Below, piece by piece: positions 2,227 to 21,923 of a stretch of DNA of 58,299 nt (within the stretch, counting starts at the first letter, position 1; each line of letters opens with the position of its first letter). A program made the translations under genes and the position numbers. The stretch is from an uncultured Oscillospiraceae bacterium (GTDB taxonomy: Bacteria; Bacillota; Clostridia; Oscillospirales; Oscillospiraceae). The stretch is from the NCBI GenBank assembly GCA_900754515.1, contig CAAEDD010000197.1, positions 1 through 58,299 on the forward strand, read 5' to 3'. Below the pieces are notes generated by a model that was given only the letters and a program-made list of their open reading frames with translations, did no database searches and was not told the DNA's origin.

Positions 2227-2228
2227 GC

Positions 2229-3573: not shown

Positions 3574-3612
3574 CCCGGGGCCGGGGAGAGCTAACTGCTC
3601 CCCGGCCCCGGG
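3574..3612. terminator. GC-rich hairpin between convergent operons
   Basis: 15-bp perfect stem CCCGGGGCCGGGGAG / CTCCCCGGCCCCGGG with a 9-nt loop, 53 nt after the kinase stop. Confidence 0.6.
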
Positions 3613-5177: not shown

Positions 5178-6080
5178 TTATTTGCATATGGCTTTTAGGA
5201 CAGCGTAACGCTCATCCACCTGCCGCTGGATATCGTCCAGCTGCTTACGGCTGAGTTTTCTGAACTTTCCAATGTCGGTTGTAAACTCCTGTACCGATAT
5301 GGGCGCATTGTTTATATAATTGAGTTTAAAGCCATCACTGTCTTTTTCCCATAGCGGGAACATATTTGATCTTACAGCCTTCTTGGATATCTGTATTGTT
5401 TGATCCTGCGGAAAGCTCCAGCCGGTCGGGCAGGGGCTGAACACGTGGAGATAAGCAAAACCCCGCTTGCTGGCCGCCAGTCCTTTCTGCACTTTCTCTA
5501 CAAAGTCTTTCATATATCCAGGCGTAGCCGCAGCACAGTATTCGATGCCATGCATAGCCATAATCAACGGCAGATATTTCTGCCCCTGCTGCTTTCCTGA
5601 GATACGGCTGCCCAGAGGAGTGGTGGAGGTTCGGGACCCCTCTGTAGTGGTGGAGCTGCGCTGATAACCGGTGTTCATGTAACCTTCGTTGTCATAGCAG
5701 ACATACAGCATTTTTTCTCCTCGCTCAGCTGCTCCGGACAGGCTTTGGAAACCGCAATCGGCAGTGGCCCCGTCTCCGGCAACCGCAACAATATTTACAT
5801 CCCCCCGGCCATAACGTTCATATATATGGCTTATCCCAGTCATAAAGGATGCAGTATTATCCAGCAACGGAATATGTACAGGTATTTTCATTCCGCTATC
5901 GTAGCTCCATCCCACGACTCCACTACCTGCCATACAGCCTGGGGGTACACAGACAATAGTATTCTCGCCCGCTATTTGCAGCACTCTGCGTAAAACCAGT
6001 TCTCCTCCGCAGCCCTGACATGCAGATATGCCCGGTGATACCATGTCAGCACGGTCTCTTATTATATCGATGTAACTCAT
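5178..6080 (-). CDS. 2-oxoacid:ferredoxin oxidoreductase, beta (TPP-binding) subunit
   Basis: CQGCGG near the N-terminus and the TPP-binding motif GDGATADCGFQSL...NEGYMNTG. Last of four adjacent OFOR subunit genes. Confidence 0.9.
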   Translation of the reverse strand: MSYIDIIRDRADMVSPGISACQGCGGELVLRRVLQIAGENTIVCVPPGCMAGSGVVGWSYDSGMKIPVHIPLLDNTASFMTGISHIYERYGRGDVNIVAVAGDGATADCGFQSLSGAAERGEKMLYVCYDNEGYMNTGYQRSSTTTEGSRTSTTPLGSRISGKQQGQKYLPLIMAMHGIEYCAAATPGYMKDFVEKVQKGLAASKRGFAYLHVFSPCPTGWSFPQDQTIQISKKAVRSNMFPLWEKDSDGFKLNYINNAPISVQEFTTDIGKFRKLSRKQLDDIQRQVDERYAVLKAICK

Positions 6081-6081
6081 T

Positions 6082-7275
6082 TTACGCCCCTTCCTGCTCT
6101 TTCATTAGCCAGCGTGTCTCCTTCTCACCTGGAAAACCTTTAACGCTGTCCAGATACATGAGAGTATCCGTCAGATCTTTTACGGATATGTCTGCTCCGC
6201 CTAGGCCGCCGATAGTTGAAAAGCTGGCCTGCTTCTCTCCCAGACTTGAAATGGCCGACAAAGTCTCCACATACATGGATCCCTTTCCCCAGCCAAAGCT
6301 GACACTGCGATCCACCACAGTAAAGGCTTTCTTTCCTCTCAGTACCTGAGCTATCCTCTCGCTGGGGAACGGGCGGTAGAAACGTATTCTTACAAGCCCT
6401 GCTTTCACGCCCTGTGCTCTGACAATATCAACAGCATCCTTTCCTGCTCCTGTCATACCGCCCATTGTAACAATAACTACCTCTGCGTCTTCGCAAAGGT
6501 ACTCCTCTATCATGCCGCCATAAGAGCGGCCGAACACTGAGGCAAATTTCCCGTCAACTTCGTCTATAACCTGTTTCGCCCTCTCCATGGCATTCAGGTG
6601 GCTTTTGCGGTAGTGCATCAGCAGTTCGCCCGGAGTCATCGGATCCAGAGCCAGAGGATGCCTTGGATCCAGAATCGCCTGGTGATAAATACCATGGGCA
6701 GGCAGAACGTCATCCACTTCCTCCTGATCCGGAATTACTACGCCGGATGTCAGGTGTGAGCTGTAGAAGCCGTCATAGCAGACATTTACAGGCAGGCATA
6801 CCTCCGGATGTTCCGCTATCATATAGCCCTGTATTATCATGTCAACGATCTCCTGATTGTCGTCGCAGAACATCTGTATCCAACCAGCCTCCCGTACGGA
6901 GATGGCATCCTGTTGGCCGCTCCAAATGGTCTCCGGTGAGGTCATCTCTCTCGTTGCTATAGCCATCACCATAGGCAGGCGCAGTGTAGACATACGAAAA
7001 TATGGCTCATACATCAGTGCAAGGCCCTGGGCGCTGGTGGCAGTAAACACCCTGCCCCCGGCAGCAGCCGCTCCCTGCACAACGCTCATCGCACTATGCT
7101 CCGACTCAACCTGAACCATTTCCGAGTCTATCTCACCATTGTGTACTTTCTCTGCCAGATACTCCACTACAGATGACTGAGGGGTGATTGGATATGCGGA
7201 AATGAGATCAATGCGGCACCTTGCCGCCGCTTCGGCAGCCGCATAGTTGCCTGTCAGCACTTTCAGGCTTCCCAT
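6082..7275 (-). CDS. 2-oxoacid:ferredoxin oxidoreductase, alpha subunit
   Basis: The N-terminus LTGNYAAAEAAARCRIDLISAYPITPQS is typical of the PorA/VorA/KorA family. It ends 1 nt before the beta-subunit start. Confidence 0.9.
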   Translation of the reverse strand: MGSLKVLTGNYAAAEAAARCRIDLISAYPITPQSSVVEYLAEKVHNGEIDSEMVQVESEHSAMSVVQGAAAAGGRVFTATSAQGLALMYEPYFRMSTLRLPMVMAIATREMTSPETIWSGQQDAISVREAGWIQMFCDDNQEIVDMIIQGYMIAEHPEVCLPVNVCYDGFYSSHLTSGVVIPDQEEVDDVLPAHGIYHQAILDPRHPLALDPMTPGELLMHYRKSHLNAMERAKQVIDEVDGKFASVFGRSYGGMIEEYLCEDAEVVIVTMGGMTGAGKDAVDIVRAQGVKAGLVRIRFYRPFPSERIAQVLRGKKAFTVVDRSVSFGWGKGSMYVETLSAISSLGEKQASFSTIGGLGGADISVKDLTDTLMYLDSVKGFPGEKETRWLMKEQEGA

Positions 7276-7278
7276 GAC

Positions 7279-7542
7279 TTATTTCTCCTCCTTTATCATT
7301 GAGATGGCCTTTCTGGGGCATTCAACCGCACAGATACCGCATCCTTTGCAGTATGTATAATCTATATAATATCCCTGCCCTTCAGAATAGCGGGGGGAAT
7401 TTACCGGGCAGTAACTCAGACATATGCCGCAATTTGTGCACTTAGTCTTGTCTATCACCGGTCTGTATACCCGCCAGCTCGCAGTGTCAAGGACATACAT
7501 TCCCCTATTTCCAACAGGGGTCACAAATTCACGATCATACAT
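7279..7542 (-). CDS. 2-oxoacid:ferredoxin oxidoreductase, delta (2x[4Fe-4S]) subunit
   Basis: 87 aa with CTNCGICLSYCP and CKGCGICAVECP. Confidence 0.9.
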   Translation of the reverse strand: MYDREFVTPVGNRGMYVLDTASWRVYRPVIDKTKCTNCGICLSYCPVNSPRYSEGQGYYIDYTYCKGCGICAVECPRKAISMIKEEK

Positions 7543-8089
7543 TTTCTTTCCCTCCCCTCAGATAATTAACACTTTCGTAGGCTCTCTGCGCTGCCAACCG
7601 GTTGTCAGTGCCGAATTTATTCTCTATCTCCTCAAATAGCAGCTCTCTGTCCACCAGTCCCACAGTTCTGGCAAAAGCCCCCAGCATGGCTGTATTTGGC
7701 AGATTTTTCCCTAAAATATCCTCCGCAATGCCGCTGGCATCCACTGTCGCTACTATTCCGGCGCAATCGGGAACCATAAGCTCTTCCAAATTATGTACGC
7801 TGTTTATCAGCACCATTCCGCCTTTCTTTAAGCCAGAATATGTCTCCTTCATACCAACCAAAGTATCGTCCATGATAACTATTATGTCCGGCTCGTATAT
7901 CTGGGTCTTACGTCTGATTTGAGTTTCGCTCAGGCGAAGATAGCCGTACACCGGTGACCCCTTTCTTTCTACGCCAAAAAACGGAATAAATTGGCCGTGT
8001 ATCCCGCCCATTACGGCAGCCTTCACGATCATCTGAGAGGCTTTGACAACTCCCTGCCCGCCTCTGCCGTGCAACCGGATTTCTTTCAT
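7535..8089 (-). CDS. 2-oxoacid:ferredoxin oxidoreductase, gamma subunit
   Basis: MKEIRLHGRGGQGVV is a typical gamma-subunit start. The start is moved to the ATG at 8089, which has the RBS AAGGAG 6 nt upstream. It overlaps the delta gene by 8 nt. Confidence 0.9.
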   Translation of the reverse strand: MKEIRLHGRGGQGVVKASQMIVKAAVMGGIHGQFIPFFGVERKGSPVYGYLRLSETQIRRKTQIYEPDIIVIMDDTLVGMKETYSGLKKGGMVLINSVHNLEELMVPDCAGIVATVDASGIAEDILGKNLPNTAMLGAFARTVGLVDRELLFEEIENKFGTDNRLAAQRAYESVNYLRGGKENV

Positions 8090-8146
8090 TGTCTTCTCCT
8101 TTATACCCTTTGTTAACGCAGCCAATTACATATAGTCTGCAATTAT

Positions 8147-9700
8147 CTACAGCATTTTTCCTGCCTGGAAAATGCGTTTATCCATTTCACGTAGTTCCGG
8201 GGATATCTCAGGTCTGAAGTCCATACATGCAAGGATATCTTTTTCCAGGTTCACTCCCGGAGCAATCTCTGTCAGCACAAGGCCGGCATCACCCAAAGTA
8301 AACACCGCCCGCTCAGTTATATACATTACCTTCTGTCGCTTTTTACGGGCCTGCCAGCTTGAAAATGTTATCTGTTCTACGCGTTTTCGAAATTTTCTGC
8401 TCTTTCCTTCTGAGCATATTCTGAGCTTCCCATCCACGACCTCAGTCTCAAGGCCGGAAGCAGTAAAGGTACTCATAAAACAGACAACCGGGCTGCTTTG
8501 CACGATATTGATAAATCCTCCTGGACCCGTGGTGCGTTTTCCAAAGCGCGATACATTTACATTTCCCTGTTCGTCTATCTCTCCCGCGCCGAGGAAGGAC
8601 ATGTCCAGACCTCCCCCGTCATAAAAATTGAAGTTGTCTTCAAGTCTATATATTACTTGTGGATTCACCGCAGCTCCAAATCCGGGGCCGCTCACAGGTA
8701 CGCCGCCCAGGGGACCGCTCTCTACTGAAAGCAGCAGCTGTGAGAATATTCCCTCCTCGGCCGCAACTGTCGCCACAGCTTCAGGTATGCCAATACCAAG
8801 ATTTACAACATTTCCGCGCTGCAGTTCGAGCACAGCTCGTCTGCCACAAATTTTTCTGTTATTAAGCGGCATTGGCTTAAAAGCATCGGTTTCTTTGATT
8901 GCATACCCACAGAGTTCCGGCCGAAATGCCGGACAATCATAGCCCGGTGTACACTGACCGTCCAAGTCTAAAACAATAAAATCCACAAGGCTGTTGTGCA
9001 AAAGTATATCCCTTGGGGAAAGCTTTCCTTCAGCAAGCCGGTCAACCTGGGCTATTACTATACCCCCACAGGCTTTCACAGCAAGAGCCATTTCTAGCTG
9101 TTCAGCTGTCATCGGGTCATCTCTGGCTGATAGATTTCCGTCGCTGTCAGCAGTTCCTATGCGCATTATGCAGGCATCCAGGGTAGGAGTCCTGTACAGC
9201 AAATATTCCTTTCCGTCCAGCTCTGTCAGTTCTGCGACCTTGCCGCCTGACCGGGCAGCCAAATTGTTCAGAGCGCCGCCTTCCACACGCGGATCACAAA
9301 AGCTTCCAAGTCCCACAGGGCTTATAACCGCGGGCTTTCCTGAGGCCGCTGCGTGCAGGAGATCAGTAACAAGTCCCAGGGGCAGGGCAAAGGCCCGCAT
9401 TCGGTTTTCGGCTATCATTTTCCCGAAGCTGAGAGCCATACCCACATGGGCAGCCCTGACCTCGGATATCAACCCATCCATTGCCAGGATATTCATGCCC
9501 CTGCTGCCTGTTGTAAGGTCTCCTGGCAATATGCCCGAAAACACGCTGAGATTTCGCGGTCTTCCTGTTCTTTCATATCTCCGGGCTATCGCGTGAAAAA
9601 TGATGTCCGCACCAAGCCATCCGCCAAAACCGCATATGCCAACAGACATACCGTCGTGAAAAAGCTCCGCAGCCTTCTCAGCATCAATAAACTGAGCCAT
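8147..9700 (-). CDS. Family I acyl-CoA:acetate/propionate CoA-transferase (Pct/YdiF type, fused subunits)
   Basis: 517 aa, alignable from memory with C. propionicum Pct: ...SVESGPLGGVP (ESG catalytic-Glu motif), FYDGGGLD, GNVNVSRFG, GGFINI, YITERAVF. Confidence 0.85.
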   Translation of the reverse strand: MAQFIDAEKAAELFHDGMSVGICGFGGWLGADIIFHAIARRYERTGRPRNLSVFSGILPGDLTTGSRGMNILAMDGLISEVRAAHVGMALSFGKMIAENRMRAFALPLGLVTDLLHAAASGKPAVISPVGLGSFCDPRVEGGALNNLAARSGGKVAELTELDGKEYLLYRTPTLDACIMRIGTADSDGNLSARDDPMTAEQLEMALAVKACGGIVIAQVDRLAEGKLSPRDILLHNSLVDFIVLDLDGQCTPGYDCPAFRPELCGYAIKETDAFKPMPLNNRKICGRRAVLELQRGNVVNLGIGIPEAVATVAAEEGIFSQLLLSVESGPLGGVPVSGPGFGAAVNPQVIYRLEDNFNFYDGGGLDMSFLGAGEIDEQGNVNVSRFGKRTTGPGGFINIVQSSPVVCFMSTFTASGLETEVVDGKLRICSEGKSRKFRKRVEQITFSSWQARKKRQKVMYITERAVFTLGDAGLVLTEIAPGVNLEKDILACMDFRPEISPELREMDKRIFQAGKML

Positions 9701-9732: not shown

Positions 9733-10785
9733 CTATAAAACATATACTACTAAATAGAAAATTTGAGGAAAGAGCAAAACCACACTCATCAGTCTGAACA
9801 TTTGCAGTAACGCCAGAGCCGGGCTGTTAATTCCCATATCCGCAGCTATAAAACTCATTTCTACTGCCCCTGCCGGGGCGAGAAACAGCATTGCTTCTTT
9901 AAAACGGAATTTAAATACCTTGCTTATCATATATCCGCCAAAAATACAAAGCAGAAGATATCCGGCGCAAAGTATTCCCGCCGGCAAGATTAGCTGCGGT
10001 AAATTTCTAATTTGTTCAGGCCCCACCCTTATTCCAATGCAGCAACCGCATAGAACCTGGGCAGCATTTCGAAGCCAGTCCGGCATAGCCCCTGCTTTCC
10101 CATATATATTCAGCATTGCCACCGCCAGCATGGAAAAGGATATGGTTCCTGCTGCTACACCGCTTATGCGTCCAAGGAGTCCGGCTGCACTTCCTATACA
10201 TAGAGCCGGTATGTATGGAATAAAAGCGGTTCTGTGTGTTTTTCCCATTGCTTTTAGCGCAGTGCTTTCTTCTTTTGCAACTCTTGCAGCGCCACCTTTT
10301 CCGCTCTTGTCTGCCAGGCAGATAAGCCAAGGCAAACAGCCAAGGCCAAAAATAACCCGTATGAATTGCAGTATAGTCACCGCAGCCACATCTGCGCCCA
10401 TGTCCATAGCTATAAGGGGTGCATCAGATATCCCTCCGGGCATGGCACTGAACAGGCAGCTTATCAGGCTCAGCTGCGTTAAATTACTTATAAGTAATGC
10501 CGCTCCAATGTTTAAGGCCAGAAAACCAAAAAATATCACTACAAACGGCCCTGTTATTCTTGGCAGAAGGCGCAGCTCGTCTTTTGTAATCATGCCTCCC
10601 AGATATGCACCTGAAATAATCTGTGACAGCACGCGGGCCTGAGGCCATACATTTGCCTTGCCGCTGGCAATATTCAACGCCGCCACGGCAACTACGGCCC
10701 CCAGCAGCAGTCCCGCCGGGACTCTGATTTTTTGAAACAGCAGGCCACCGAGCAACGCTGCAGCCATCGTAATCGCTATCCACAT
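9733..10785 (-). CDS. AbrB-duplication family polytopic membrane protein (putative transporter)
   Basis: About 350 aa and very hydrophobic, with two internally similar halves (GG.L...I..P.G.LLG / AAG.LG.....AG). The start is taken at the ATG at 10785, because the ORF-track start is TTG. Confidence 0.65.
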   Translation of the reverse strand: MWIAITMAAALLGGLLFQKIRVPAGLLLGAVVAVAALNIASGKANVWPQARVLSQIISGAYLGGMITKDELRLLPRITGPFVVIFFGFLALNIGAALLISNLTQLSLISCLFSAMPGGISDAPLIAMDMGADVAAVTILQFIRVIFGLGCLPWLICLADKSGKGGAARVAKEESTALKAMGKTHRTAFIPYIPALCIGSAAGLLGRISGVAAGTISFSMLAVAMLNIYGKAGAMPDWLRNAAQVLCGCCIGIRVGPEQIRNLPQLILPAGILCAGYLLLCIFGGYMISKVFKFRFKEAMLFLAPAGAVEMSFIAADMGINSPALALLQMFRLMSVVLLFPQIFYLVVYVL

Positions 10786-10949
10786 AATATCTGACCTCAA
10801 CGCGCGGTTTTCTCCATTGGGACAACTTGCTGCACAACCAAATCAGCAAAAAATCTGTTGCTTACGGCCGGTACATTCAACCGAAACGCCACATATTTTG
10901 GCAAACAGTATTTGCTGTTTTTTCCCCATGGAATTCCGTCTGTAATATT

Positions 10950-11897
10950 TTAGACCAGGTGGCATGCCACTTCATGGCCGGGAGCACATTCTTTCAGGCA
11001 AGGCGCTTGCTGATAGCAGATATCCTTCGCCATCCAGCAACGGTTTGCAAAGCGGCAACCAGGTTTTGGATTTACAGGGCTTGGCACATCTCCCTTGAGC
11101 AATATGCGCTCGGGCCTATGATGCTGATATTTTGCAATAGGTATTGCCGACAACAAAGCCTTAGTGTAGGGATGCTGAGGGTTTTTGAATAGCTCATGAG
11201 ATGGAGATACCTCCACAATCTTTCCAAGATACATAACCACGATACGGTTGCTGATATGCCTCACAACGCTGAGGTCGTGAGATACAAACAGATAGGTTAG
11301 ATGCATGGTGTCCTGAAGGTCTTGAAGAAGATTCAGAATCTGGGCTTGTATTGATACATCCAGAGACGAAACCGGCTCGTCACATACAATAAATTCCGGA
11401 TTCAGCGCAAGAGCGCGGATAATTCCTACACGCTGGCGGCGACCGCCGTCCAACTCATGGGGATAGCTGTTGTACAGCCGACGGCTCACACCGCCCTTGC
11501 TCATCAGTTCCAGGACATACTCGTTTATATTCTTGTGAGGAACTACCTTATTTATGACAAGAGGCTCGGCAATGATCTGCCCTATAGTTTTTCTGGGATC
11601 AAGGCAGGAATATGGGTCCTGAAATATCATCTGCATTTTTTTGCGCATCGCCCGCATCTGAGAAGCTCGATACTTGAGAATATCCTCACCCTCATAGAGT
11701 ACTTCCCCTTCGGTGTGGGGAGTGAGGCGTAGCAAGGTTCTGCCCACGGTAGACTTTCCGCAGCCGCTTTCACCCACAAGTCCCAGAGTTTCTCCTTTGT
11801 TGATGTAAAAGCTCACATCGTCAACCGCGTGCAGATATCCCGCAGGAACCTTAAAATACTTTTTCAGATTTTTGACTTCTATAAGCTTTTCAGGCAT
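10950..11897 (-). CDS. Oligo/dipeptide ABC transporter ATP-binding protein (OppF/DppF type)
   Basis: Walker A GESGCGKST, signature LDGGRRQR-type, Walker B FIVCDEP, and a Cys-rich C-terminal Opp-type extension. Confidence 0.9.
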   Translation of the reverse strand: MPEKLIEVKNLKKYFKVPAGYLHAVDDVSFYINKGETLGLVGESGCGKSTVGRTLLRLTPHTEGEVLYEGEDILKYRASQMRAMRKKMQMIFQDPYSCLDPRKTIGQIIAEPLVINKVVPHKNINEYVLELMSKGGVSRRLYNSYPHELDGGRRQRVGIIRALALNPEFIVCDEPVSSLDVSIQAQILNLLQDLQDTMHLTYLFVSHDLSVVRHISNRIVVMYLGKIVEVSPSHELFKNPQHPYTKALLSAIPIAKYQHHRPERILLKGDVPSPVNPKPGCRFANRCWMAKDICYQQAPCLKECAPGHEVACHLV

Positions 11898-12873
11898 TCT
11901 CTACACCCCCCGCATATAAGTGGCATCTTACGGTATGGTTATCTCCTATTTTTATCTCATCCGGCTCTTTTTGAGAACATATCTCCATAGCATAGTCACA
12001 TCTCTTGCAGAACTTGCAGCCCTCAGGCAGCCTTGTGGGATCAGGCATAGCACCCCTGATCACATAGAGCCGCTGGGAGTCCTCTGATTCAATATCTGGT
12101 ATGCATCCAAACAGTCCTTTAGTGTAGGGATGGGCAGGTTGAGTAAAGATGGATTTCAGGTCGCCGTATTCAATCACACTGCCTGCGTAGATAACCGCTA
12201 CATAATCGGCAATATCCGCCACAACTCCAAGGGCGTGGGTAATGAATATAGTGGATGTCTGATATTTCTCCTTGAGCCCCTTCATCAGATCCAGTATTTG
12301 CGCCTGGATAGTGACATCCAGGGCTGTGGTTGGCTCATCGGCAATAAGCAGGCTTGGATTGCAGGCCAAGCCCATGGCTATACATACCCGCTGTTTCATC
12401 CCGCCGGAAAATTCATGAGGATAGTTTTTCAGTCTTTCCTTGGGTATGCCCACTATCTCAAGCATCTCTCCGGCTTTTTCCATAGCCTCGCTCTTGCTGA
12501 GATTTTGGTGCTGCATAATGACTCCGGCGATCTGATGTCCGACCGTATATACCGGATTCAATGAAGTCATTGGATTCTGAAATATCATGGCGATTTTATT
12601 GCCACGGTATTCCTGCAGTTCCTTTTTACCGGCCTTGAGCAGATCTTTCCCCTCAAATAGTATCTCGCCAGAAGTAATAACTCCCGGCGGATTGGGAATC
12701 AAGCCCATAATAGCAAGAGCTGTGGTTGTTTTGCCGGCACCGGTTTCCCCCACCAGGCCTATAGTCTTGCCCTTTGGCAGTTCGAGGTTAAGGTTGTTAA
12801 TAGCTTTTACAACCCCATCAAAGGTTCTAAACTCAATGCTCAGGTTCTTGATCTGGAGCAGATTTTCGCTCAT
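11890..12873 (-). CDS. Oligo/dipeptide ABC transporter ATP-binding protein (OppD/DppD type)
   Basis: Walker [10 protein letters not shown], signature FSGGMKQR, Walker [13 protein letters not shown], and a Cys-rich C-terminus. It overlaps the OppF-type gene by 8 nt. Confidence 0.9.
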
Positions 12874-12914: not shown

Positions 12915-14285
12915 TTAATCCAGATACTCATGGAAAATATTGGCCATGAGCTTTATAGCCGTCAGATATTGTTCTATACTTATGTTTTCATCTGGAGCAT
13001 GGGTGTTGGCCGTAGAGAAGGGTGCGCCCAAACCGATAATGAATACATCTCCGCCTAAATACTGGGGGAACATGCACATGGGCCCGGAACCATCCAGCAG
13101 CGGCCACACCACAGGAGCCCGACCATACACCTTGGTTGCCAGCCTGGCAGACAGTTTGACAAGCTCATGGTTCGGAGAACACTGGTATGGCTCATTATTT
13201 GCTTTTACCTTTACATCGAAGTGGCCAAATGGTGACTTTTCAATAAAATCGATCAGCTTTTCCTTGGCCTGGGCTATGCTCATTCCTTTGACCAAACGCA
13301 TGTCCAGGCGCACCCAGGCTTCGCACGGAACTATTGTCTTTCCTCGTTCTCCTGCCCATCCACCCTTTATGCCGGATATATTGCAGGTTGGAGTATAGAT
13401 GAGCCTTTTTATGACCTCAACCGGATCGTCGCTTCCTCCAAGTATTTCAGGTATGGCATACTCTTTCTTAAACTGCTCCAGATCATAGGGAATATCCCGT
13501 ATCAGATTCAGTTCCTCTTCCGAGGGAGCTTTCACATTGTCGGTATAGCCGTCTATAGTAATTTCATCCAGAGTGTTTTGCATGGAGTTAAGCAAACGTA
13601 CCAGATCCCAGATGGCATTTGGTATCAGCGGAGCATGACCAGAATGGACATCCCTTTTAGCGCGTTTACAGGAAATTTCCACTTCCATAAGTCCTTTGTT
13701 GCCAAGGTAAAATTGTGGACGTCCGCTTTCATGCACACCTCTGTCGCACAGCAGGCAAGCATCACTGCTCAGCACATCTGAGTATGTAGAAAAGAATTTT
13801 GCCAGATTAGGACTGCCAATCTCCTCTTCACCTTCAAAGAAAAACTTCAGCCCGGCAGGAATCTTGCCCGTCACATTTTTCAGCACTTCCGCCGCCTTTA
13901 TATTTGCCCAGAGATTGCCCTTGTCGTCAGTAGCCCCTCTGGCATAAATCATCCCGTCTCGTATCTCGGCTGAAAAAGGATCTGAAGTCCACCTGTCTAC
14001 CGGGTCCGGAGACTGTACATCGTAGTGACCGTAGACCACCAACTGCTTATTTGCTCTTTCTGTTTTGGAGACGCCGTATATTGCCGGAAAAGCACCTTCC
14101 AATTCCAGGATTCTGTGATCCATCCCCAGTGTTTTTAGCTCCCTGCTCAGCATATCGGTGCATTCTTCCATTCCGATATTCTCTGTGGATATGCTTGGCT
14201 GCCTCAAGAAATTCTGCAGGCTGGATACCAATTCATCGGCATGGGAATCTACATAGTCCGAAATCTGTTTCATCAATTCACTCAT
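12915..14285 (-). CDS. M20-family metallopeptidase (dipeptidase, CNDP/DUG1-like), copy 1
   Basis: VYGHYDVQSPDPVDRWTSDPF...IYARGATDDKG and FFEGEEEIGS metal-ligand blocks. Paralog of the adjacent gene. Confidence 0.85.
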   Translation of the reverse strand: MSELMKQISDYVDSHADELVSSLQNFLRQPSISTENIGMEECTDMLSRELKTLGMDHRILELEGAFPAIYGVSKTERANKQLVVYGHYDVQSPDPVDRWTSDPFSAEIRDGMIYARGATDDKGNLWANIKAAEVLKNVTGKIPAGLKFFFEGEEEIGSPNLAKFFSTYSDVLSSDACLLCDRGVHESGRPQFYLGNKGLMEVEISCKRAKRDVHSGHAPLIPNAIWDLVRLLNSMQNTLDEITIDGYTDNVKAPSEEELNLIRDIPYDLEQFKKEYAIPEILGGSDDPVEVIKRLIYTPTCNISGIKGGWAGERGKTIVPCEAWVRLDMRLVKGMSIAQAKEKLIDFIEKSPFGHFDVKVKANNEPYQCSPNHELVKLSARLATKVYGRAPVVWPLLDGSGPMCMFPQYLGGDVFIIGLGAPFSTANTHAPDENISIEQYLTAIKLMANIFHEYLD

Positions 14286-14344
14286 GGATTTTCTCCCTTC
14301 TTTGTCCTTGAATCTGCGCTCTGTTCAAGCACAGTGCCACAATG

Positions 14345-15700
14345 TCAGTTCCCGGTCTTACCCATCTCTTGAATAAGAGCAGCGGCAGTGCGTATTCCGT
14401 TATAATACCCGGAAACAGTCATACATTCATTGGGAGAGTGGTTGTTCTGGTTAAAGGGTGCAAAAGGTATAACTGCACTGGGTATCTTCAACACATCCTG
14501 AAATATATAATTGGGGCCCGCTCCACCTATATTGGGGAATATAATGGGATCCTCTCCCCAGGCCAGACGGATGGCCCTGGCCATAACAGGCACATACTCA
14601 TTATCAATGGGAGTGCGAGATGGCTTCAGTGAGCCGAAGCTGACGACCTCTGCATCCTCAAAGCCATTTTTGACAAGGTGCTTCTTTATTTTGTCAATGA
14701 TATCCTCTGGAGTCTGATCAGGTACAAGACGGAAATCAATTTTGACAGTAACCTCATTGGGAATAATTGTTTTTGATCCCGGTCCCTGATATCCGCCGTA
14801 AAGACCAGCAATGCTGCTGGATGGTTCAAAAATCAGGTTGTAGTAATAGTCATCTCCTGTACGGTTCATAAGGAAGTGGTCTATGCCAAGATCGTTCAAG
14901 ATTTCTTCCCTGTCTACAGGAATTTTCTTTATTGCTTCTTTCTCCAGTGGGAGCAATGGCCTTACCGTATCGTAAAACCCCTCTACTTTAATAAATCCAT
15001 CCTCCCCCCGGATGCTGTTCAAAAGACTGACCATCCGCCACATAGGACTTGGAATAACCCCGCCCTTCATGGAGTGAACATCACGATTCGCACCATGCAG
15101 GGTTATCTGAAGATATACCAAACCCTTGAGTCCCAATATGAGCATGGGCTTGCCCGTCTCATGTACATGGCTGTCTGACATCACGACCAAATCGCCTTTT
15201 AGCAGTTCCTTATTTTCGGAGCAAAACGGCTCCAAATTTGGACTGCCTATCTCTTCTTCTCCCTCAAAAAGATATTTAATGTTTATAGGCAGCTTTCCAT
15301 AGGTCTTAAGATAAGCCTCGACTCCCTTTACATGGGCAAAAAGCTGAGATTTATTGTCTGACACTCCGCGGGCATAAATATATCCGTCTCTTATTTCTGG
15401 CTCAAATGGGTCGCTGTCCCAGAGTTCATAGGGCTCCGGTGGCTGTACGTCATAATGGCCGTAAATTATAAGTGTCGGAAGCTGCTGGTCGGTAATAATC
15501 TCACCATAGACAACTGGATGGCGGGCAGTCGGATATATGATAGTCTTTATCCCCGCATCCTCCATCATATCCCTCAGCAGGGATGCGCATTGGGACACCC
15601 CGTCATCCTGTGCGCTTATACTTCTGCAGCGCAGGAATTTAAACAGGTCGTCCATAAACCGTTCTTCATTGTCATGAATGTATTGAAACACTCTCTCCAT
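14345..15700 (-). CDS. M20-family metallopeptidase (dipeptidase, CNDP/DUG1-like), copy 2
   Basis: IYGHYDVQPPEPYELWDSDPF...IYARGVSDNKS and LFEGEEEIGS. Confidence 0.85.
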   Translation of the reverse strand: MERVFQYIHDNEERFMDDLFKFLRCRSISAQDDGVSQCASLLRDMMEDAGIKTIIYPTARHPVVYGEIITDQQLPTLIIYGHYDVQPPEPYELWDSDPFEPEIRDGYIYARGVSDNKSQLFAHVKGVEAYLKTYGKLPINIKYLFEGEEEIGSPNLEPFCSENKELLKGDLVVMSDSHVHETGKPMLILGLKGLVYLQITLHGANRDVHSMKGGVIPSPMWRMVSLLNSIRGEDGFIKVEGFYDTVRPLLPLEKEAIKKIPVDREEILNDLGIDHFLMNRTGDDYYYNLIFEPSSSIAGLYGGYQGPGSKTIIPNEVTVKIDFRLVPDQTPEDIIDKIKKHLVKNGFEDAEVVSFGSLKPSRTPIDNEYVPVMARAIRLAWGEDPIIFPNIGGAGPNYIFQDVLKIPSAVIPFAPFNQNNHSPNECMTVSGYYNGIRTAAALIQEMGKTGN

Positions 15701-15737: not shown

Positions 15738-16679
15738 TCAGTCTTTCATCTTCGGATCCAGCACATCTCTAAGCCCATCTCCCAGCAGGTTGAGTCCAAG
15801 AACCAGGAACAATATGGCAAGGCCGGTAATTGTAGTTACATGAGGTGCCGTCAGCAAATATTGGCGGCCGGTACTGAGCATTGCGCCCCACTCAGGCGTG
15901 GGAGGCTGGGCGCCTATGCCAAGGAATCCCAAACCCGAAGTGGTAAGAATGGCATTACCAAAGCTCAGAGTAGCAAGGATTATCATAGGTGCAACAATAT
16001 TCACCAGAATATGCTTAAAAATAATACGAATATGACCTGAGCCCAAAGCTCTGGCAGCTTCAATAAATTCACTGTTTCTGAGAGCAAGTGTCTCGCCTCT
16101 GGCTGTTCGGGCAAAGTTTGGCACTGTATATATGCCAACCGATAAAATGGCATTATCCAGATCCTGACCAAGTATGCTCACAAAGAGTATGGCCAGCAGT
16201 ATACCCGGAAAGGCCATAAGTACGTCCATAGCTCTCATCAGCAGCGCGTCAATTTTCCCTCCAAAGTATCCGGCACATATTCCTATGGGAGTACCGATAA
16301 TAAAGGCCACACCAACTGCCACAACGCCAACCCGCATAGAAATTCGTGCTCCGTAGATAATTCGGCTGAGCAGATCTCGTCCTGTCTCATCGGTACCGAG
16401 CAGATGCTCTGCGCTCGGCCCCTGGAGTTTGTTTGCCAGATCCTGCTTTGTAGGATCATAAGGAGCCAGCACATCGGCAAAAATAGCCATAAAAATATAT
16501 AGCAAAACAATAATAAGACCAAGTACAGCAATCTTTCTCTTTGTAAAGCTGTGCCACATACGTCTGAGCTGATTGGAGGCAACTACTTCATTATCATCAT
16601 CTATCTGATTATAGCCGGCATCAATGATAGTGACCTGATTGGGGTCTGGATACAACCCGGCTTTTTTTTGCTCACTCAT
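15738..16679 (-). CDS. Oligo/dipeptide ABC transporter permease (OppC/DppC type)
   Basis: Six-TM BPD permease with LGTDETGRDLLSR and the EAA-like block EFIEAARALG. Confidence 0.9.
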   Translation of the reverse strand: MSEQKKAGLYPDPNQVTIIDAGYNQIDDDNEVVASNQLRRMWHSFTKRKIAVLGLIIVLLYIFMAIFADVLAPYDPTKQDLANKLQGPSAEHLLGTDETGRDLLSRIIYGARISMRVGVVAVGVAFIIGTPIGICAGYFGGKIDALLMRAMDVLMAFPGILLAILFVSILGQDLDNAILSVGIYTVPNFARTARGETLALRNSEFIEAARALGSGHIRIIFKHILVNIVAPMIILATLSFGNAILTTSGLGFLGIGAQPPTPEWGAMLSTGRQYLLTAPHVTTITGLAILFLVLGLNLLGDGLRDVLDPKMKD

Positions 16680-16693
16680 ATCTGCTTCCTCCT

Positions 16694-17614
16694 TTAGCTC
16701 AGCTTTATGCGCGGATTAATAAATGCATACAATATGTCTACCAGCAAATTTATCAGCACAAACATGCTGGCCAGAACAAGTATGGTCGACTGTACTACGG
16801 GAAAATCTCTGGCGCGTATGGCCGTAACCACCAAACTGCCAAGTCCGGGCCAACCAAACACCTGCTCCGTGATGACAGCACCGCCCAGCAGGGAACCGAA
16901 CTGAAGTCCGGCAACGGTAACGATAGTATTCATGGAATTCTTCAGAGCTTGTCCAAAAATAACCTTACGTTCGCTAAACCCCTGAGCCCGGGCAGTCTGA
17001 ATATAGTCCTGGCTCATGACCTCCAGCATGCTGGAGCGCGTCATTCTTGCAATAGTTGCCATGCTACGTGCGCTGAGGGTTATAGCAGGCAATATTATGC
17101 CTGCAAGGGTAACACCGCCGGATATTGGCAGCCACTTGAGCATGACGCTAAATATAAGCATCAGCATCAGGCCAAGGTAAAAAGGTGGTATAGACAATCC
17201 GAACAATGCAAAGAGCATGCTGAAATTGTCAAATACGCTGTAACGTTTTGTGGCAGAAACTATGCCGATGGAAATTCCAACCACAATGGATATGAGTATT
17301 GCTGCAGCGGCCAATATCAAAGTGTTTGGCAAACGGGACATTATTTCTTCTGAAACTGGGCGATTAGTACGTATGGAAGTGCCCATATCCCCCTTTAAAA
17401 CATTGGTAATATACCGAAAATACTGTTCAGGCAAGGGCCTGTCAAAACCCTGGGCGACCCGGACGCGCTCAATGTCCGCCTCTGTTGCGGCCTCGCCGGC
17501 AATGATCTTTGCTGGGTCTCCTGGCATCAGATGAACCATCATAAACACCAAAATGGAAACTACCAGTAAGACCGGGATCATGGTTGCAAGTCTTCTGAAT
17601 ATAAATTTGACCAT
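16694..17614 (-). CDS. Oligo/dipeptide ABC transporter permease (OppB/DppB type)
   Basis: MVKFIFRRL..PGDP N-terminus and DYIQTARAQG EAA motif. Confidence 0.9.
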   Translation of the reverse strand: MVKFIFRRLATMIPVLLVVSILVFMMVHLMPGDPAKIIAGEAATEADIERVRVAQGFDRPLPEQYFRYITNVLKGDMGTSIRTNRPVSEEIMSRLPNTLILAAAAILISIVVGISIGIVSATKRYSVFDNFSMLFALFGLSIPPFYLGLMLMLIFSVMLKWLPISGGVTLAGIILPAITLSARSMATIARMTRSSMLEVMSQDYIQTARAQGFSERKVIFGQALKNSMNTIVTVAGLQFGSLLGGAVITEQVFGWPGLGSLVVTAIRARDFPVVQSTILVLASMFVLINLLVDILYAFINPRIKLS

Positions 17615-17693: not shown

Positions 17694-17726
17694 GCGGCCT
17701 GACAAATTATGTTTTTGCCAGGCCGC
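17694..17726 (-). terminator. Possible intra-operon attenuating hairpin after the binding-protein gene
   Basis: 8-bp stem GCGGCCTG / CAGGCCGC with a 17-nt loop. On the minus strand it is followed by CTTTTGT. It lies in the 164-nt gap between the binding-protein and permease genes. Confidence 0.35.
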
Positions 17727-17778: not shown

Positions 17779-19323
17779 TCATGTGCGTGCAAGATATCTG
17801 AGGTCTATCATTTCGTTGGGGAAGATCACGAAACCAGATACATCAGATGCACAGCCAAAGGTCTGCTTCTCGTAGTAAAGGACAGCCTGGGGGCAATCGT
17901 CATTGATCTTCTTCTGGATATCGTAGAGTATCTTCTCTCGGACTGCGGAATCAGTGGTCTGGCGCTGTTCAATGAGCCACTCATCTACCTGTGGATCAGA
18001 ATACTGGGTATTATTCATGCCCTTGCCCGTGCCAAAGCAGAGATCCAGAGTGTAGTCCGGGTCACCGGAGGGGCTGCCTTTGCCCAAAAGGAACAGCTGG
18101 GTTTCAGTGCCTTCGGTGGTCATTGTGGAGTAAGCACCCCATTCCACTACCTGCAGCTCAGCGTTAATACCCACTTCAGCCAACATTGACTGACATACCT
18201 CCGCCACCATGCGGTCCATGGGATATCTTCCCTCACAAGTATGGAATACTATGTCCAGTCCATCCTCATATCCAGCCTCTTTAAGCAGTTCCTTGGACTT
18301 TTCAGGATTATAGGTGTAGGGATCCAAATCCTGAGCAGAATATGGGATAACAGTAGACTCTATGCCCGAAGGATACTGGGCGTAACCTTCAAGAACGTGG
18401 TCGATAATGGACTGCTTATCTATGGCATAAGCCACAGCCTGGCGCACTCTTACATCGTCAAAGGGGGCTCTGGATGTGTTCATGCCCAGATAAATGGTAC
18501 GGTAGCCGGTCTCAACCTGGACGGTCACGTTGGGGTCGGACTCAATCTGAGAGATCTGCGCCGCTGCAACAGGGGCAACATCCGCATCTCCGGACTGAAG
18601 CATCATGACCCTTGAGGAGTCTTCAGCCACAAATTTGAATGTAAGATTGTCAATAGTAGATTTTTCTCCCCAGTATCCGTCATACTTGGTCATAACCAAA
18701 GAACTGCCGGGTACCCACTCTTTTATCATCAGCGCACCGGTGCCGCAAGGGTGGAGCGAAATATCCGTGCCATACTCTTCCAGTGCAGTAGGGCTCATCA
18801 TGCTGAGGTTATAATTGGAAATCTGTCCCAGCATGGGGCCATAGGGCTCATCAGTGCTCAAGGCAACTTCATATTCGCTGATGACCTCAACTTTTGTTAT
18901 CATGTCTACAGTGGAAGCTCTCGGTGAGCCCACAGAGGGATCCTGAAGCCGTTCGATATTGTACTTCACAGCTTCAGCATTAAAAGGTGTGCCGTCATGG
19001 AAGGTTACTCCCTCGCGAAGTTTAAAAGTCCAAGTAAGCTCGTCTTCAGAGGTAGTCCAACTCTCAGCTAGCCAAGGCTCAATAGTGGTGCCCACGTTGC
19101 GAACCAAGGTTTCATAAATCTGAACATTGGCTCTAGCAGTATTGACGTCGGTAATAAAATGTACGTCAAAGGTTGTGGGCTCAGTGCCAACAGCAAAGAC
19201 AAAATCGTTGCTTCCTACAGATGCGGCTCCCGAGTCTCCGGAAGGTGTGGAATTTGCGCCGCAGCCTGCCAGCAGTACTGCCATAAGGGCAATTGCAAGC
19301 AATCTTTTCACGGTTTTTTTCAT
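17779..19323 (-). CDS. Peptide ABC transporter substrate-binding lipoprotein (family 5, OppA/DppA type)
   Basis: Lipobox LLAGC after a signal peptide. 514 aa with family-5 SBP blocks (TFKLREGVTFHDGTPFNA). Confidence 0.9.
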   Translation of the reverse strand: MKKTVKRLLAIALMAVLLAGCGANSTPSGDSGAASVGSNDFVFAVGTEPTTFDVHFITDVNTARANVQIYETLVRNVGTTIEPWLAESWTTSEDELTWTFKLREGVTFHDGTPFNAEAVKYNIERLQDPSVGSPRASTVDMITKVEVISEYEVALSTDEPYGPMLGQISNYNLSMMSPTALEEYGTDISLHPCGTGALMIKEWVPGSSLVMTKYDGYWGEKSTIDNLTFKFVAEDSSRVMMLQSGDADVAPVAAAQISQIESDPNVTVQVETGYRTIYLGMNTSRAPFDDVRVRQAVAYAIDKQSIIDHVLEGYAQYPSGIESTVIPYSAQDLDPYTYNPEKSKELLKEAGYEDGLDIVFHTCEGRYPMDRMVAEVCQSMLAEVGINAELQVVEWGAYSTMTTEGTETQLFLLGKGSPSGDPDYTLDLCFGTGKGMNNTQYSDPQVDEWLIEQRQTTDSAVREKILYDIQKKINDDCPQAVLYYEKQTFGCASDVSGFVIFPNEMIDLRYLART

Positions 19324-19412: not shown

Positions 19413-20045
19413 TCAGTCCATGGCGATTTCTGCAAGAATACGAGCAGCACGCTCAGTATTGAATATATGACAATGGCACTGGGGCATTATCTTTTCTGCT
19501 GCCTGTTCAGCAGTCATCTTTCCTGCTTTTATCTTTCTTACCATGTCTTCCACGAGAGTAAAGGGGATCATTCCATGTCCGCACATAGTAGTCACATCCG
19601 CAACTCTCGAGTCTGCTGGCATCTTCTCTTCCACATTACCCCAGACTCCCAGCGAAGTGTTAACAGTATGAGGCTCCAGTCCAGCCTCCCGGCAGCATTT
19701 GTGCACCGTGTCAAAAAGTCCGGACACCACAATTGATATGCCTAAATCTGCTTCCTTAAGTTCCTTGAGGCAGGCAACCAGATCTTCTTCGCTTCTGAAT
19801 ACGGCATGTGTTACTCCGTTATCTGATACAACTTTCAGTGCCTCATCCACACGCTCCATTGTCAGTGGTCCGTCCATGCCAAGTATCCCTGCATTAACTA
19901 CATTGTGTTTAAGGAATATCTCGCCAATCTTAACTAATTCCTTAGCACAGCCATCACGGTTATACCCCTTTGCGCCTATAGCAAGAATTGGAAAATCATT
20001 TTTGAGGCTATCGACCGAGCCGCTCCGATGTAAAGTATGCGACAT
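19413..20045 (-). CDS. Unassigned Cys/His-motif protein (module copy 2, small partner)
   Basis: Starts MSHTLHR at the ATG at 20045, with AAGGAG 7 nt upstream inside the end of the preceding gene. It shares LKEADLGISIVVSGL, KCC, LGVWG, TTMCGHGM and CHCHIFNT with the 3776-4405 protein. Confidence 0.7.
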   Translation of the reverse strand: MSHTLHRSGSVDSLKNDFPILAIGAKGYNRDGCAKELVKIGEIFLKHNVVNAGILGMDGPLTMERVDEALKVVSDNGVTHAVFRSEEDLVACLKELKEADLGISIVVSGLFDTVHKCCREAGLEPHTVNTSLGVWGNVEEKMPADSRVADVTTMCGHGMIPFTLVEDMVRKIKAGKMTAEQAAEKIMPQCHCHIFNTERAARILAEIAMD

Positions 20046-20049
20046 GCTG

Positions 20050-20760
20050 TTACTCCTTTCTAGCCCGTCCAAGTCCAACGCAGGTCTTCCCGTTAGGACG
20101 ACGCTCTATCCCGGCTCGAGCCAAAAGTTTATCCGTTGGTATTTCTCCATCTCTCATGCGGCTTATGACATCCACGCTGAACACAGTGCTCACCTTTTTC
20201 TGTTCTTCCTTCAGGTCCATAAGCAGGCCAGGCAATTCTGACTCATCCAGCATTGCCTCAATAATAAAGGAAAGAGAACGTTCATTTTTAAACTCATCCT
20301 TTACTATGCCGGTATTACCTGGCTCGAAAACTATGGCAGAGGGATTTTCCTGCTCAAGCTGTGCACCGTGAGCGCAGATTACCCTGGCAATGGTTTCCAC
20401 ATCTTTAAAACTGGTGCCGGTTGCCGGCCTTCCCATCTCGCAGGCAAATCCAACTTTTCCCAGAGGAAAACGATTGGTAATATCGTTCGTCTTCATCTCT
20501 TCTGTACCCCGGCCCAGAATACCGGTATTTGGCGATTTCTCCCGGGCGTTGCTGAATATGGCTCTTATCATCCTGGGCATTACCATCGTCTGCTGAACTA
20601 TGGCATCTCTTGGACATACGCCTCCAAATTTACAGTTACCGCATTCAACGCACAAATCCAAGTCTATATATGCCTGCTTATTCTGAATGCTTATTGCCTT
20701 CATACCACAATAAGGTATGCATAGTCCGCAGCCAATGCATTTCCCCTGATCAATAACCAT
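20050..20760 (-). CDS. 2x[4Fe-4S] ferredoxin-domain protein with an unassigned C-terminal domain (module copy 2, large partner)
   Basis: CIGCGLCIPYC and CVECGNCKFGGVCP, then GRGTEEMKTNDIT and EMGRP. First gene of the 17-gene operon. Confidence 0.8.
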   Translation of the reverse strand: MVIDQGKCIGCGLCIPYCGMKAISIQNKQAYIDLDLCVECGNCKFGGVCPRDAIVQQTMVMPRMIRAIFSNAREKSPNTGILGRGTEEMKTNDITNRFPLGKVGFACEMGRPATGTSFKDVETIARVICAHGAQLEQENPSAIVFEPGNTGIVKDEFKNERSLSFIIEAMLDESELPGLLMDLKEEQKKVSTVFSVDVISRMRDGEIPTDKLLARAGIERRPNGKTCVGLGRARKE

Positions 20761-20972: not shown

Positions 20973-21923
20973 ATGATAACCAAGCTCTATTATTTTATTA
21001 AAGTTGCTCAAACCGGTAATTTGACCCGTGCTGCTCAGGAACTTTTTATTTCTCAGCCGGCCCTCACCATGGCAATAAAAAGGCTGGAAAAAGAACTTGA
21101 TGTTACTTTATTTGAAAGAGAAGGCAATCGCCTCATTCTCTCCCCTTCAGGGAAAAAAATGCTGCCCTATGCGGAAAATCTGTACAACGACTACACTCTG
21201 CTTAAATCCTCCCTCTCCACTCAGAAGAAGCCTCCGCATAGCATAAGGCTTGGAAGTGGAATAAGCCATGCGGCAAAAATTGTTGAGTTTTACATGGATA
21301 AGGTCTACGACGGCAGCATAATACTTCAGCAATATTACGATTACTATGATCTGAGGAATGCTTTGCTTGAACACAAAGTAGATTTTGTTTTCTGTACTCC
21401 ACCTATAGTTGGCCCTGATATTATTTCCAAGGACATTTTTTATGAGCCCATATGTGCTCTCATGAACCCCTCTCACCCTCTAACCAAGCTGGATATTTTG
21501 TCCATTGAAGACTTAACGGCCCATCCGCTGATAACCCTCCCCAAAAATTTCCCTATGCGTGTAGCCATTGACCGGGCTTTTGCCAACGCCAATATCAGGC
21601 CAAGTTATTCAATTGAAGTTGACAGCATAGTTATCTCCACTATGCTCAATCGAGAACAAAGCCGGCTAGTCACGCTCTATCCATTGTCAAGGGCCCGCTC
21701 CGTCCACAGTCTGAGTGGCCTTGCTTACCGTCCGATTTCGGAGCCCTCTTTCAAAAGGGTACTTGGTATCTCCTGGTATAATTCCAGCTCTATTTCCTAT
21801 CTGCTGGAAGACATCGTAAGATCTACGGAGGAGTTCTATGCCACCTCGCCGTTATTTCAAAAATGGGGAAGCTTTCCGGAGGAGGAAGGGATAAACTTCA
21901 TTTTTACTCCATCCAAATCATAA
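20973..21923 (+). CDS. LysR-family transcriptional regulator, divergent from the 17-gene operon
   Basis: N-terminal HTH TGNLTRAAQELFISQPALTMAIKRLEKEL plus a LysR substrate-binding domain length (316 aa). Confidence 0.9.
   Translation: MITKLYYFIKVAQTGNLTRAAQELFISQPALTMAIKRLEKELDVTLFEREGNRLILSPSGKKMLPYAENLYNDYTLLKSSLSTQKKPPHSIRLGSGISHAAKIVEFYMDKVYDGSIILQQYYDYYDLRNALLEHKVDFVFCTPPIVGPDIISKDIFYEPICALMNPSHPLTKLDILSIEDLTAHPLITLPKNFPMRVAIDRAFANANIRPSYSIEVDSIVISTMLNREQSRLVTLYPLSRARSVHSLSGLAYRPISEPSFKRVLGISWYNSSSISYLLEDIVRSTEEFYATSPLFQKWGSFPEEEGINFIFTPSKS

Follow-up and report, generated by a model that had tools for sequence, protein, structure and literature searches.

An unnamed family of ferredoxin-linked protein pairs with two anciently diverged members in one Oscillospiraceae gene string: a candidate Fe–S oxidoreductase of organic acids

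Introduction

The window analysed here is the whole stretch of 58,299 nucleotides of contig CAAEDD010000197.1 (assembly GCA_900754515.1, an uncultured Oscillospiraceae bacterium), and our subject is a two-gene module at 19413–20760 that encodes a ferredoxin-domain protein (A1) and a protein of novel fold (B1) and has a diverged counterpart (A2 and B2) at 3776–5154. The two pairs belong to a large unnamed family, which we call A–B, and very probably represent two of its anciently separated orthologous groups, as judged from sequence. The family probably acts on small organic acids in the breakdown of acids and peptides. The best explanation as a whole, to which we give about even odds (a probability of roughly 0.5), is that A–B is an Fe–S oxidoreductase that converts a hydroxy or amino acid to its 2-oxoacid, the two pairs of the window having two specificities.

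The family extends over gut Oscillospiraceae, Negativicutes, sulfate reducers, syntrophs, Dehalococcoidia, NC10 and Bathyarchaeia, and cultured hosts include Thermosinus carboxydivorans, Sporolituus thermophilus, Pseudodesulfovibrio methanolicus, Desulfosporosinus lacus and Dethiosulfatarculus sandiegensis. In catabolic clusters it sits where a step is lacking between the uptake of organic acids or peptides and 2-oxoacid:ferredoxin oxidoreductase (OFOR). A functional assignment would close a gap that recurs when the metabolism of anaerobes is reconstructed, and could bring to light an Fe–S active site of a new kind. With two diverged copies that have different conserved partners in one gene string, the window offers a natural comparison of specificities.

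The A1–B1 pair and the A–B family

Both genes lie on the minus strand. A1 (20760..20050, 236 residues) is a predicted electron-transfer subunit with an N-terminal 2×[4Fe–4S] ferredoxin domain and a novel α/β C-terminal domain, and contains the motifs CIGCGLCIPYC, CVECGNCKFGGVCP, GRGTEEMKTNDIT and EMGRPA. Its TAA stop codon (20052..20050) is followed by four nucleotides, CAGC, and then by the ATG of B1 at 20045. B1 (20045..19413, 210 residues), the putative catalytic subunit, begins with MSHTLHR, contains LKEADLGISIVVSGL, KCC, LGVWG, TTMCGHGM and CHCHIFNT, and carries the invariant residues Cys155, His157, Cys190, Cys192 and Asn196. The ribosome-binding site of B1, AAGGAG (20058..20053, minus strand), consists of the last two sense codons of A1 (AAG GAG), an arrangement that suggests translational coupling of the two genes. 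The open reading frames (ORFs) thus bear out the two-gene module of the initial annotation, with its motifs, its 4-nt spacing and a ribosome-binding site inside the end of the upstream gene. A longer ORF for B1 that starts with TTG at 20078 was rejected; 319 of the 321 family members open with M-x-H at residue 1, and the start was therefore placed at 20045.

We define the A–B family by a gene for A directly 5′ of one for B, where A combines Fer4 with the motifs GRGTEEMKTN, GRP and PNGK, and B has an M-[S/T]-H-T-L-H-R start, TMCGH, CxC and N196. Both window pairs carry all of the invariant residues, with a gap of 4 nt in one and an overlap of 1 nt in the other. Among 1.84 billion representatives, the B profile matched 891 clusters at 50% identity, 563 of them with E ≤ 1e-10, and a scan of 185,579 GTDB species, one genome each, yielded at least 563 confirmed matches. 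These come from Bacillota, Negativicutes, Dehalococcoidia, Anaerolineae, Thermodesulfobacteriota, NC10, Gemmatimonadota, Bacteroidales and Bathyarchaeia. One orthologue of B2 with 89% identity (P0245) is filed under a 'Bacteroidaceae' metagenome-assembled genome (MAG), while the other close relatives are from Oscillospiraceae or other Bacillota; this placement is probably a mis-binning. A search of the full-text literature returned no description of the family.

The two proteins are tightly linked. Of 95 B genes, 89 directly follow a gene for A; 30 pairs overlap, and the median gap is 2 nt. B and A are fused into one protein in P0496 and P0499, and B is fused to a multi-cluster ferredoxin in P0372. 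A GltD/NfnB-like module of Fer4_20 and Pyr_redox_2 forms one protein with A at four loci, with one domain order in L057 and L078 and another in L072 and L076. Several pairs per locus or genome are common, either in tandem or kilobases apart (L005, L027, L039, L041, L053, L077, L015, L025 and L047). The adjacency of A and B, the B–A fusions and the joining of A with NAD(P)H/FAD modules point to a heteromeric redox enzyme, and one that acts on organic acids is probable. We infer from the sequences a physical complex of A and B, with catalysis in B and an electron path leading through A.

Two anciently separated copies

A2 (5154..4405, minus strand, 249 residues) is a paralogue of A1, and B2 (4405..3776, minus strand, 209 residues) is a paralogue of B1, its start overlapping the A2 stop by 1 nt (ATGA). 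In pairwise alignments A1 and A2 share 40% identity over 245 columns, and B1 and B2 share 39% over 209 columns, each with an E value of 4e-51. This confirms that 19413–20760 is a genuine second copy of the A2–B2 pair and agrees with the earlier observation that the pairs are similar along their full length while differing at most positions.

The initial annotation had further read the copies as the result of an old split rather than a recent repeat, and here too the data are in agreement. A tree of 321 B sequences, computed by neighbour joining without bootstrap, separates the B1 clade (about 64 members) from the B2 clade (about 62 members), and about 195 sequences from other phyla come between them. 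B1 has orthologues in about 45 clusters at 55–100% identity, and B2 in about 58 clusters at 60–92%. A and B co-vary across 107 adjacent pairs (r = 0.90), and A1-type proteins are paired with B1-type proteins in 11 cases and A2-type with B2-type in ten, with none crossed. Comparison of the four window genes with their orthologues gave dN values of 0.08–0.20 with saturated synonymous sites (pS 0.71–0.92), which indicates purifying selection on A1, B1, A2 and B2. Relaxed selection, a sign named beforehand as one to look for, was therefore not seen in any of the four genes, and no conserved Cys or His has been lost in either clade; all invariant residues of the family are kept in both.

The view that the copies are redundant, recent in-genome duplicates would account for their shared two-gene layout and strand. 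It conflicts, however, with an identity of just 39–40%, with separate clades whose orthologues in other genomes reach 60–92% identity, with partner genes that differ between A1B1 and A2B2, and with the purifying selection on all four genes. We consider it refuted by the tree, the selection and the strict pairing of A and B types, and give it next to no weight. What did not stand from the earlier reading is an origin of the copies by duplication inside the operon: they are members of two ancient subfamilies that stand apart in other genomes, each in a unit of its own, and were brought together here.

Two specificities rather than redundancy had also been suggested, for example for two substrates or two half-reactions. 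The former part finds indirect support in the partner genes described below and in clade-specific residues beside the invariant Cys residues of B (Gly or Lys at 9, KCC or CCA at 116–118, His or Gly at 193 and Arg or Lys at 199), so that A1B1 and A2B2 may well differ in specificity; for two half-reactions no support was found.

The predicted electron-transfer subunit A

The N-terminal part of A is a 2×[4Fe–4S] ferredoxin domain by Cys motifs, Pfam scores and fold. A1 matches PF00037 (Fer4) with 39.8 bits (cutoff 21.1) and PF12838 (Fer4_7) with 30.0 bits (cutoff 27). The ligands C8, C11, C14, C18, C37, C40, C43 and C49 are invariant among 93 homologues in seven cases, and C11 is kept in at least 90%. 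With Foldseek, residues 1–56 superpose on the ferredoxin of Clostridium acidurici (1fdn) with a TM score of 0.86 to the target, an r.m.s.d. of 1.3 Å and 48% identity. One source labels an A homologue (P0220) as DUF362; this label was not adopted, as A1 and A2 match Fer4-type Pfam families alone.

The C-terminal part, of about 180 residues, is an α/β domain with the invariant motifs GRGTEEMKTN, GRP and PNGK; for this domain (176–189 residues) no Pfam match at E ≤ 10 and no NCBIfam or PDB relative was found. In a profile–profile comparison, the C-domain of A (84–236) gave a weak colinear match to the N-domain of B (8–144), with an E value of 0.0046 and a probability of 7.6%, which pairs PNGKxNxGLG with PHTVNxSLG in regions that are both predicted to be β-α-β sandwiches. 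The two domains may be ancient paralogues that form a pseudo-symmetric heterodimer, a notion on which, given the weak match, we do not rely.

The putative catalytic subunit B

B has no Pfam match even at E ≤ 10, no NCBIfam match and no PDB match by sequence or by family profile, and its predicted structure (pLDDT 94) has no relative in the PDB by Foldseek, the best hit having an E value of 0.03 and a TM score of 0.27. The model consists of an N-terminal β-α-β sandwich and a C-terminal helical half that bears the conserved Cys and His residues. Of the 321 sequences, all keep C155 and H157, 320 keep C192 and R7, and 319 keep C190, H3, H6 and N196, whereas C117 is conserved in just 268. A metal or cluster would be located at the site formed by Cys155, His157, Cys190 and Cys192. 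The protein nearly always begins exactly at Met1 of the family-wide M-[S/T]-H-T-L-H-R, which suggests that the free N-terminus is part of the active site. IsmB, an Fe–S flavoenzyme of gut sterol metabolism, was considered and set aside as an unrelated OYE-type enzyme.

These features could also be those of a non-redox Fe–S lyase that acts as a dehydratase or deaminase, in the manner of L-serine dehydratase or cysteine desulfidase, and would produce the 2-oxoacid by elimination while the ferredoxin domain merely keeps the catalytic cluster reduced or repaired. The site with three invariant Cys residues would suit such an enzyme, as would the combination of an α/β domain with a helical, Cys-bearing domain; Fe–S serine dehydratases have an architecture loosely like this two-part build. 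Partners that hydrolyse peptides, in the window and at locus L004 (M20 peptidases and γ-glutamyltranspeptidase), and the genes for the α and β subunits of serine dehydratase just 3′ of the unit in L080 point the same way. On the other hand, a non-redox lyase would not be expected to have an invariant, complete two-cluster ferredoxin domain or to be joined repeatedly with NAD(P)H/FAD modules, and neither A nor B matches SDH_alpha (PF03313) or SDH_beta (PF03315), B showing no sequence or fold likeness to these or to known lyases, by Foldseek included. We therefore regard a lyase as improbable.

The 17-gene string

From 20760 down to 3776, 17 genes lie on the minus strand, with A1–B1 first and A2–B2 last. 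Upstream of A1, a divergent gene for a LysR-type regulator (20973..21923, plus strand) is kept beside A1B1 orthologues. After B1 come, all on the minus strand, a family-5 solute-binding protein of an Opp/Dpp-type ABC importer (17779..19323), two ABC permeases (15738..17614), two M20A metallopeptidases related to CNDP2, Dug1 and Sso-CP2 (12915..15700) and two ABC ATPases with the oligo_HPY C-terminal domain (10950..12873). A gap of 149 nt precedes the second unit, which begins with an AbrB-family membrane protein (9733..10800), a putative transporter in the slot that is taken by CitMHS or 2HCT in related units, and continues with a family-I CoA-transferase like YdiF/FadX (8147..9700) and a four-subunit OFOR (5178..8125) ahead of A2. 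The OFOR subunits are γ (8125..7535), δ (7542..7279), α (7275..6082) and β (6080..5178). The δ gene, found just with a low ORF cutoff, encodes 87 residues with two CxxCxxCxxxCP motifs and overlaps the γ stop; because of it, the OFOR is a complete four-subunit enzyme.

The position of A2–B2 directly after OFOR β, in the window and in L080–83, L097 and L099, raises the question of whether A–B is an accessory of OFOR, with A as its dedicated electron carrier or acceptor and B as an adaptor or maturation factor, all the more as the N-domain of A is weakly PorD-like. Against this, the OFOR has its own δ subunit (7542..7279), and A1 and A2 score 27.6 and 29.8 bits with PorD_KorD (TIGR02179), for which the cutoff is 60.05; for the same two reasons A2 was rejected as a missing δ subunit. 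Moreover, most family members have no OFOR nearby, several genomes have two or three tandem A–B pairs, and the strictly conserved His, Cys and Arg set of B looks catalytic. An accessory role is thus quite improbable, even more so than a lyase, and both readings are less likely than those in which A–B oxidizes or reduces a substrate.

A single transcript of the 17 genes, all of which are co-directional, is plausible. Two hairpins stand out, and no other strong terminator was found. The first (17694..17726, minus strand), between the genes for the solute-binding protein and the first permease, has a 13-bp GC-rich stem followed by CUUUUGU (−23.2 kcal/mol, z −4.5), and may be a partial terminator, an attenuator or a stabilizer that splits expression within the presumed operon. 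The second (3574..3612, minus strand) is GC-rich (−45 kcal/mol, z −6.5), separates the convergent genes for B2 and a histidine kinase, and is probably a bidirectional terminator that marks the end of the string. The string is flanked on this side by genes for a LytTR response regulator and a GHKL histidine kinase (1528–3521, plus strand), with no evident link to the module. Beyond the LysR gene, a minus-strand ORF of 832 residues (22099–24597) with heavy-metal-binding CxxC motifs and DKTGT reads, by these sequence motifs only, like a P-type ATPase; it likewise has no evident link to A–B.

Partner genes in other genomes

In other genomes the two halves of the string are units on their own. They have been joined in this lineage, in which relatives at 82–87% identity retain the whole layout (L087–91, in the B1 clade: LysR, A-B-Opp-M20×2-...-AbrB-CoA-transferase/OFOR); the second half, from the ATPases through B2, is seen in a relative at 87% identity (L099, in the B2 clade). 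The partners of A1B1 are a LysR regulator and an importer, which in the window is the Opp-type ABC system with its two M20 dipeptidases. Other units of the B1 clade have the layouts LysR | A-B-CitMHS (L084–86), LysR | DctPQM-A-B (L095) or CitMHS-OFOR-kinase-PduL-Ldh_2-A-B-ApbA... (L096). In units of the B2 clade, A–B is invariably found with a four-subunit OFOR, an enzyme of CoA or phosphate transfer and an acid transporter, in varying order: IclR | CoA-transferase-CitMHS-OFOR-A-B (L080–83 and L097), IclR | OFOR-CitMHS-A-B-CoA-transferase (L092–94), and AsnC | OFOR-2HCT-A-B followed by an acetate-kinase-family kinase and a PTA_PTB-family phosphotransacylase (L098). In one relative with 87% B1 identity (L090, 11847–13312) the AbrB-family gene stands directly before OFOR γ with no CoA-transferase in between; therefore the CoA-transferase is dispensable or has been relocated.

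A census of three genes on either side of A–B at 79 loci across the family found enrichment of TctCBA (12, 11 and eight loci) and DctPQM (five to seven loci) transporters, of LarA racemases, PdxA, 2-hydroxyacid dehydrogenases, Ldh_2 and ApbA, and of AFOR, family-III CoA-transferases and, in Dehalococcoidia, GlcDEF with glycerate kinase. Opp, M20 and OFOR were seldom near A–B at these loci and are not universal partners. A prismane/CODH gene beside A–B in L052 was considered as a donor module; it is a weak partial match (49.7 bits) and was not used.

Individual loci hint at particular substrates. L004 (2326–10615, a Bacillota MAG) encodes SBP_bac_5, two permeases, M20, γ-glutamyltranspeptidase, A and B, and provides a second, independent tie of A–B to the uptake and hydrolysis of peptides or γ-glutamyl compounds. 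In L043 (7574–13566) A–B is accompanied by an Oxc/Gcl-like thiamine pyrophosphate enzyme and two Frc-like CoA-transferases, and in L031 (7689–14663) and L095 (1–2765) by FdrA/AllF- and AllG-like subunits of oxamate carbamoyltransferase, with an amidohydrolase as well in L031; the gene content of these clades hints at oxalate, oxamate or glyoxylate as substrates. In Dehalococcoidia (L064, 1348–10026, and also L041, L006 and L027) two or three A–B pairs, mostly in tandem, are followed by LarA, a xylose-isomerase-like protein (possibly of the Hyi type), GlcD, GlcE, GlcF, glycerate kinase and a D-2-hydroxyacid dehydrogenase. This set looks like a glycolate/glycerate cluster without a recognizable glyoxylate carboligase.

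Proposed role

In the explanation that we prefer, an Fe–S oxidoreductase with two specificities, A would wire electrons between an outside carrier, which would be ferredoxin or in some relatives the fused NAD(P)H–FAD module, and the site in B that would hold a metal or cluster, where a small α-hydroxy or α-amino carboxylic acid would be oxidized to its 2-oxoacid. The co-encoded four-subunit OFOR would then convert the 2-oxoacid to an acyl-CoA, the CoA-transferase would hand the CoA on, and A1B1 and A2B2 would differ in substrate or stereoisomer. In the B2-clade units, despite their shuffled order, A and B are the sole genes besides those for the transporter, OFOR and the CoA- or phosphate-transfer enzyme. 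We favour oxidation to the 2-oxoacid since A–B is the sole candidate that could link the acid to OFOR and since L098 mirrors the luo operon of Desulfovibrio, discussed below. That A–B itself makes the 2-oxoacid is put forward tentatively, with distinctly less assurance than the explanation as a whole, and the direction of the reaction and the class of substrate are guesses.

Several points weigh against this explanation. Oxidation of a 2-hydroxyacid (about −190 mV) cannot readily reduce a low-potential ferredoxin or NADP+. A is like the low-potential ferredoxins of clostridia, some relatives have it fused to NAD(P)H modules, and its AFOR and OFOR neighbours are low-potential donors, all of which fits a reductase better. 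The link to OFOR is confined to the B1 and B2 clades, OFOR being near A–B in just two of the 79 loci of the census, and in L001 and L096 A–B lies among genes for Ldh_2, ApbA and 2-Hacid_dh, whose products could already make 2-oxoacids. The metal or cluster in B is deduced from conservation alone, and the Cys3His set could be a structural zinc site. Finally, the database names of all members, those of cultured hosts included, are 'hypothetical' or '4Fe-4S binding protein'.

The same points bring in an enzyme that works in the opposite direction, as an electron sink. A would take electrons from NADPH or from ferredoxin reduced by OFOR or AFOR, and B would reduce an imported organic acid by C=C reduction, reductive dehydroxylation or reductive deamination, with a different acceptor for each copy. 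The fusions of A to GltD/NfnB-like modules, the adjoining OFOR and AFOR donors and the unfavourable energetics of ferredoxin reduction by a hydroxyacid agree with this. So do the minimal units of regulator, transporter and A–B (L084–86, L095 and L078), which resemble acceptor-import systems, and the three invariant Cys residues of B with a variable fourth, which suit a [4Fe–4S] cluster with one open iron; such a cluster is found in IspH-type reductive dehydroxylases. However, nothing else in the B2-clade units could link the imported acid to OFOR, no product exporter or acceptor-specific gene recurs, and the LarA racemases and hydroxyacid dehydrogenases nearby suit a stereospecific dehydrogenase equally well. 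A reductase is, on balance, somewhat unlikely.

A broader possibility, which we also hold to be somewhat unlikely, is that A–B represents an enzyme class of its own, built around a novel active site. In that case the unseen fold of B, with its free N-terminus and Cys3(His) set, would form a new Fe–S or metal centre fed by the clusters of A, and the family would have radiated to hydroxy, amino and C2 acids (glycolate, glyoxylate, oxalate and oxamate). The paralogues of the window would handle two products from imported peptide-like conjugates, one possibility being the two halves, 2-hydroxyacid and amino acid, into which the CNDP2-like M20 enzymes would cut N-acyl or N-lactoyl amino acids.

Comparison with known systems

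A–B shares parts with several known systems. The first is clostridial ferredoxin and the PorD δ subunit, to which residues 1–56 of A are alike, with all eight Cys ligands; A differs in having about 180 extra residues with motifs of their own, and the window OFOR has a separate δ subunit. The second is the NAD(P)H–FAD–2[4Fe–4S] modules of the GltD/NfnB/PreT type, which feed the catalytic subunits of glutamate synthase, dihydropyrimidine dehydrogenase and Nfn. Some relatives of A are fused to such a module (L057/L078 and L072/L076), whereas the window proteins are without it, their partner presumably being free ferredoxin. The third is the Fe–S L-serine dehydratase, which combines a small α/β domain with a helical domain that bears the cluster Cys residues and yields a 2-oxoacid as its product. 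Its likeness to B is one of loose architecture; the two are not matched by Pfam or Foldseek, and the dehydratase is without a ferredoxin subunit.

Functionally, the closest systems are LutABC/LldEFG and the GlcD-type D-lactate dehydrogenase, as in the luo operon of Desulfovibrio vulgaris (DVU3025–3033). The lactate-utilization operons likewise place multi-subunit Fe–S enzymes beside a permease, a pyruvate/2-oxoacid:ferredoxin oxidoreductase and Pta/Ack. Nevertheless, A–B is not a member of these enzyme families: A1, B1, A2 and B2 have no match to CCG or LUD (DUF162) domains even at E ≤ 10, A and B have none to FAD_binding_4 or FAD-oxidase_C, and there is no kinship of sequence or fold, B being without a PDB match. 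Genuine GlcD, GlcE and GlcF genes are present only as neighbours, in the Dehalococcoidia loci. In the luo operon a single transcript covers POR, a permease, two different heteromeric lactate dehydrogenases (D and L), Pta and Ack (PMC4481167). It is a direct precedent for two paralogous modules of different specificity in one operon, and the layout of L098 is that of the luo operon with A–B in place of the lactate dehydrogenases. The A–B family is unnamed, the fold of B is new, and the kind of role proposed for it is a familiar one.

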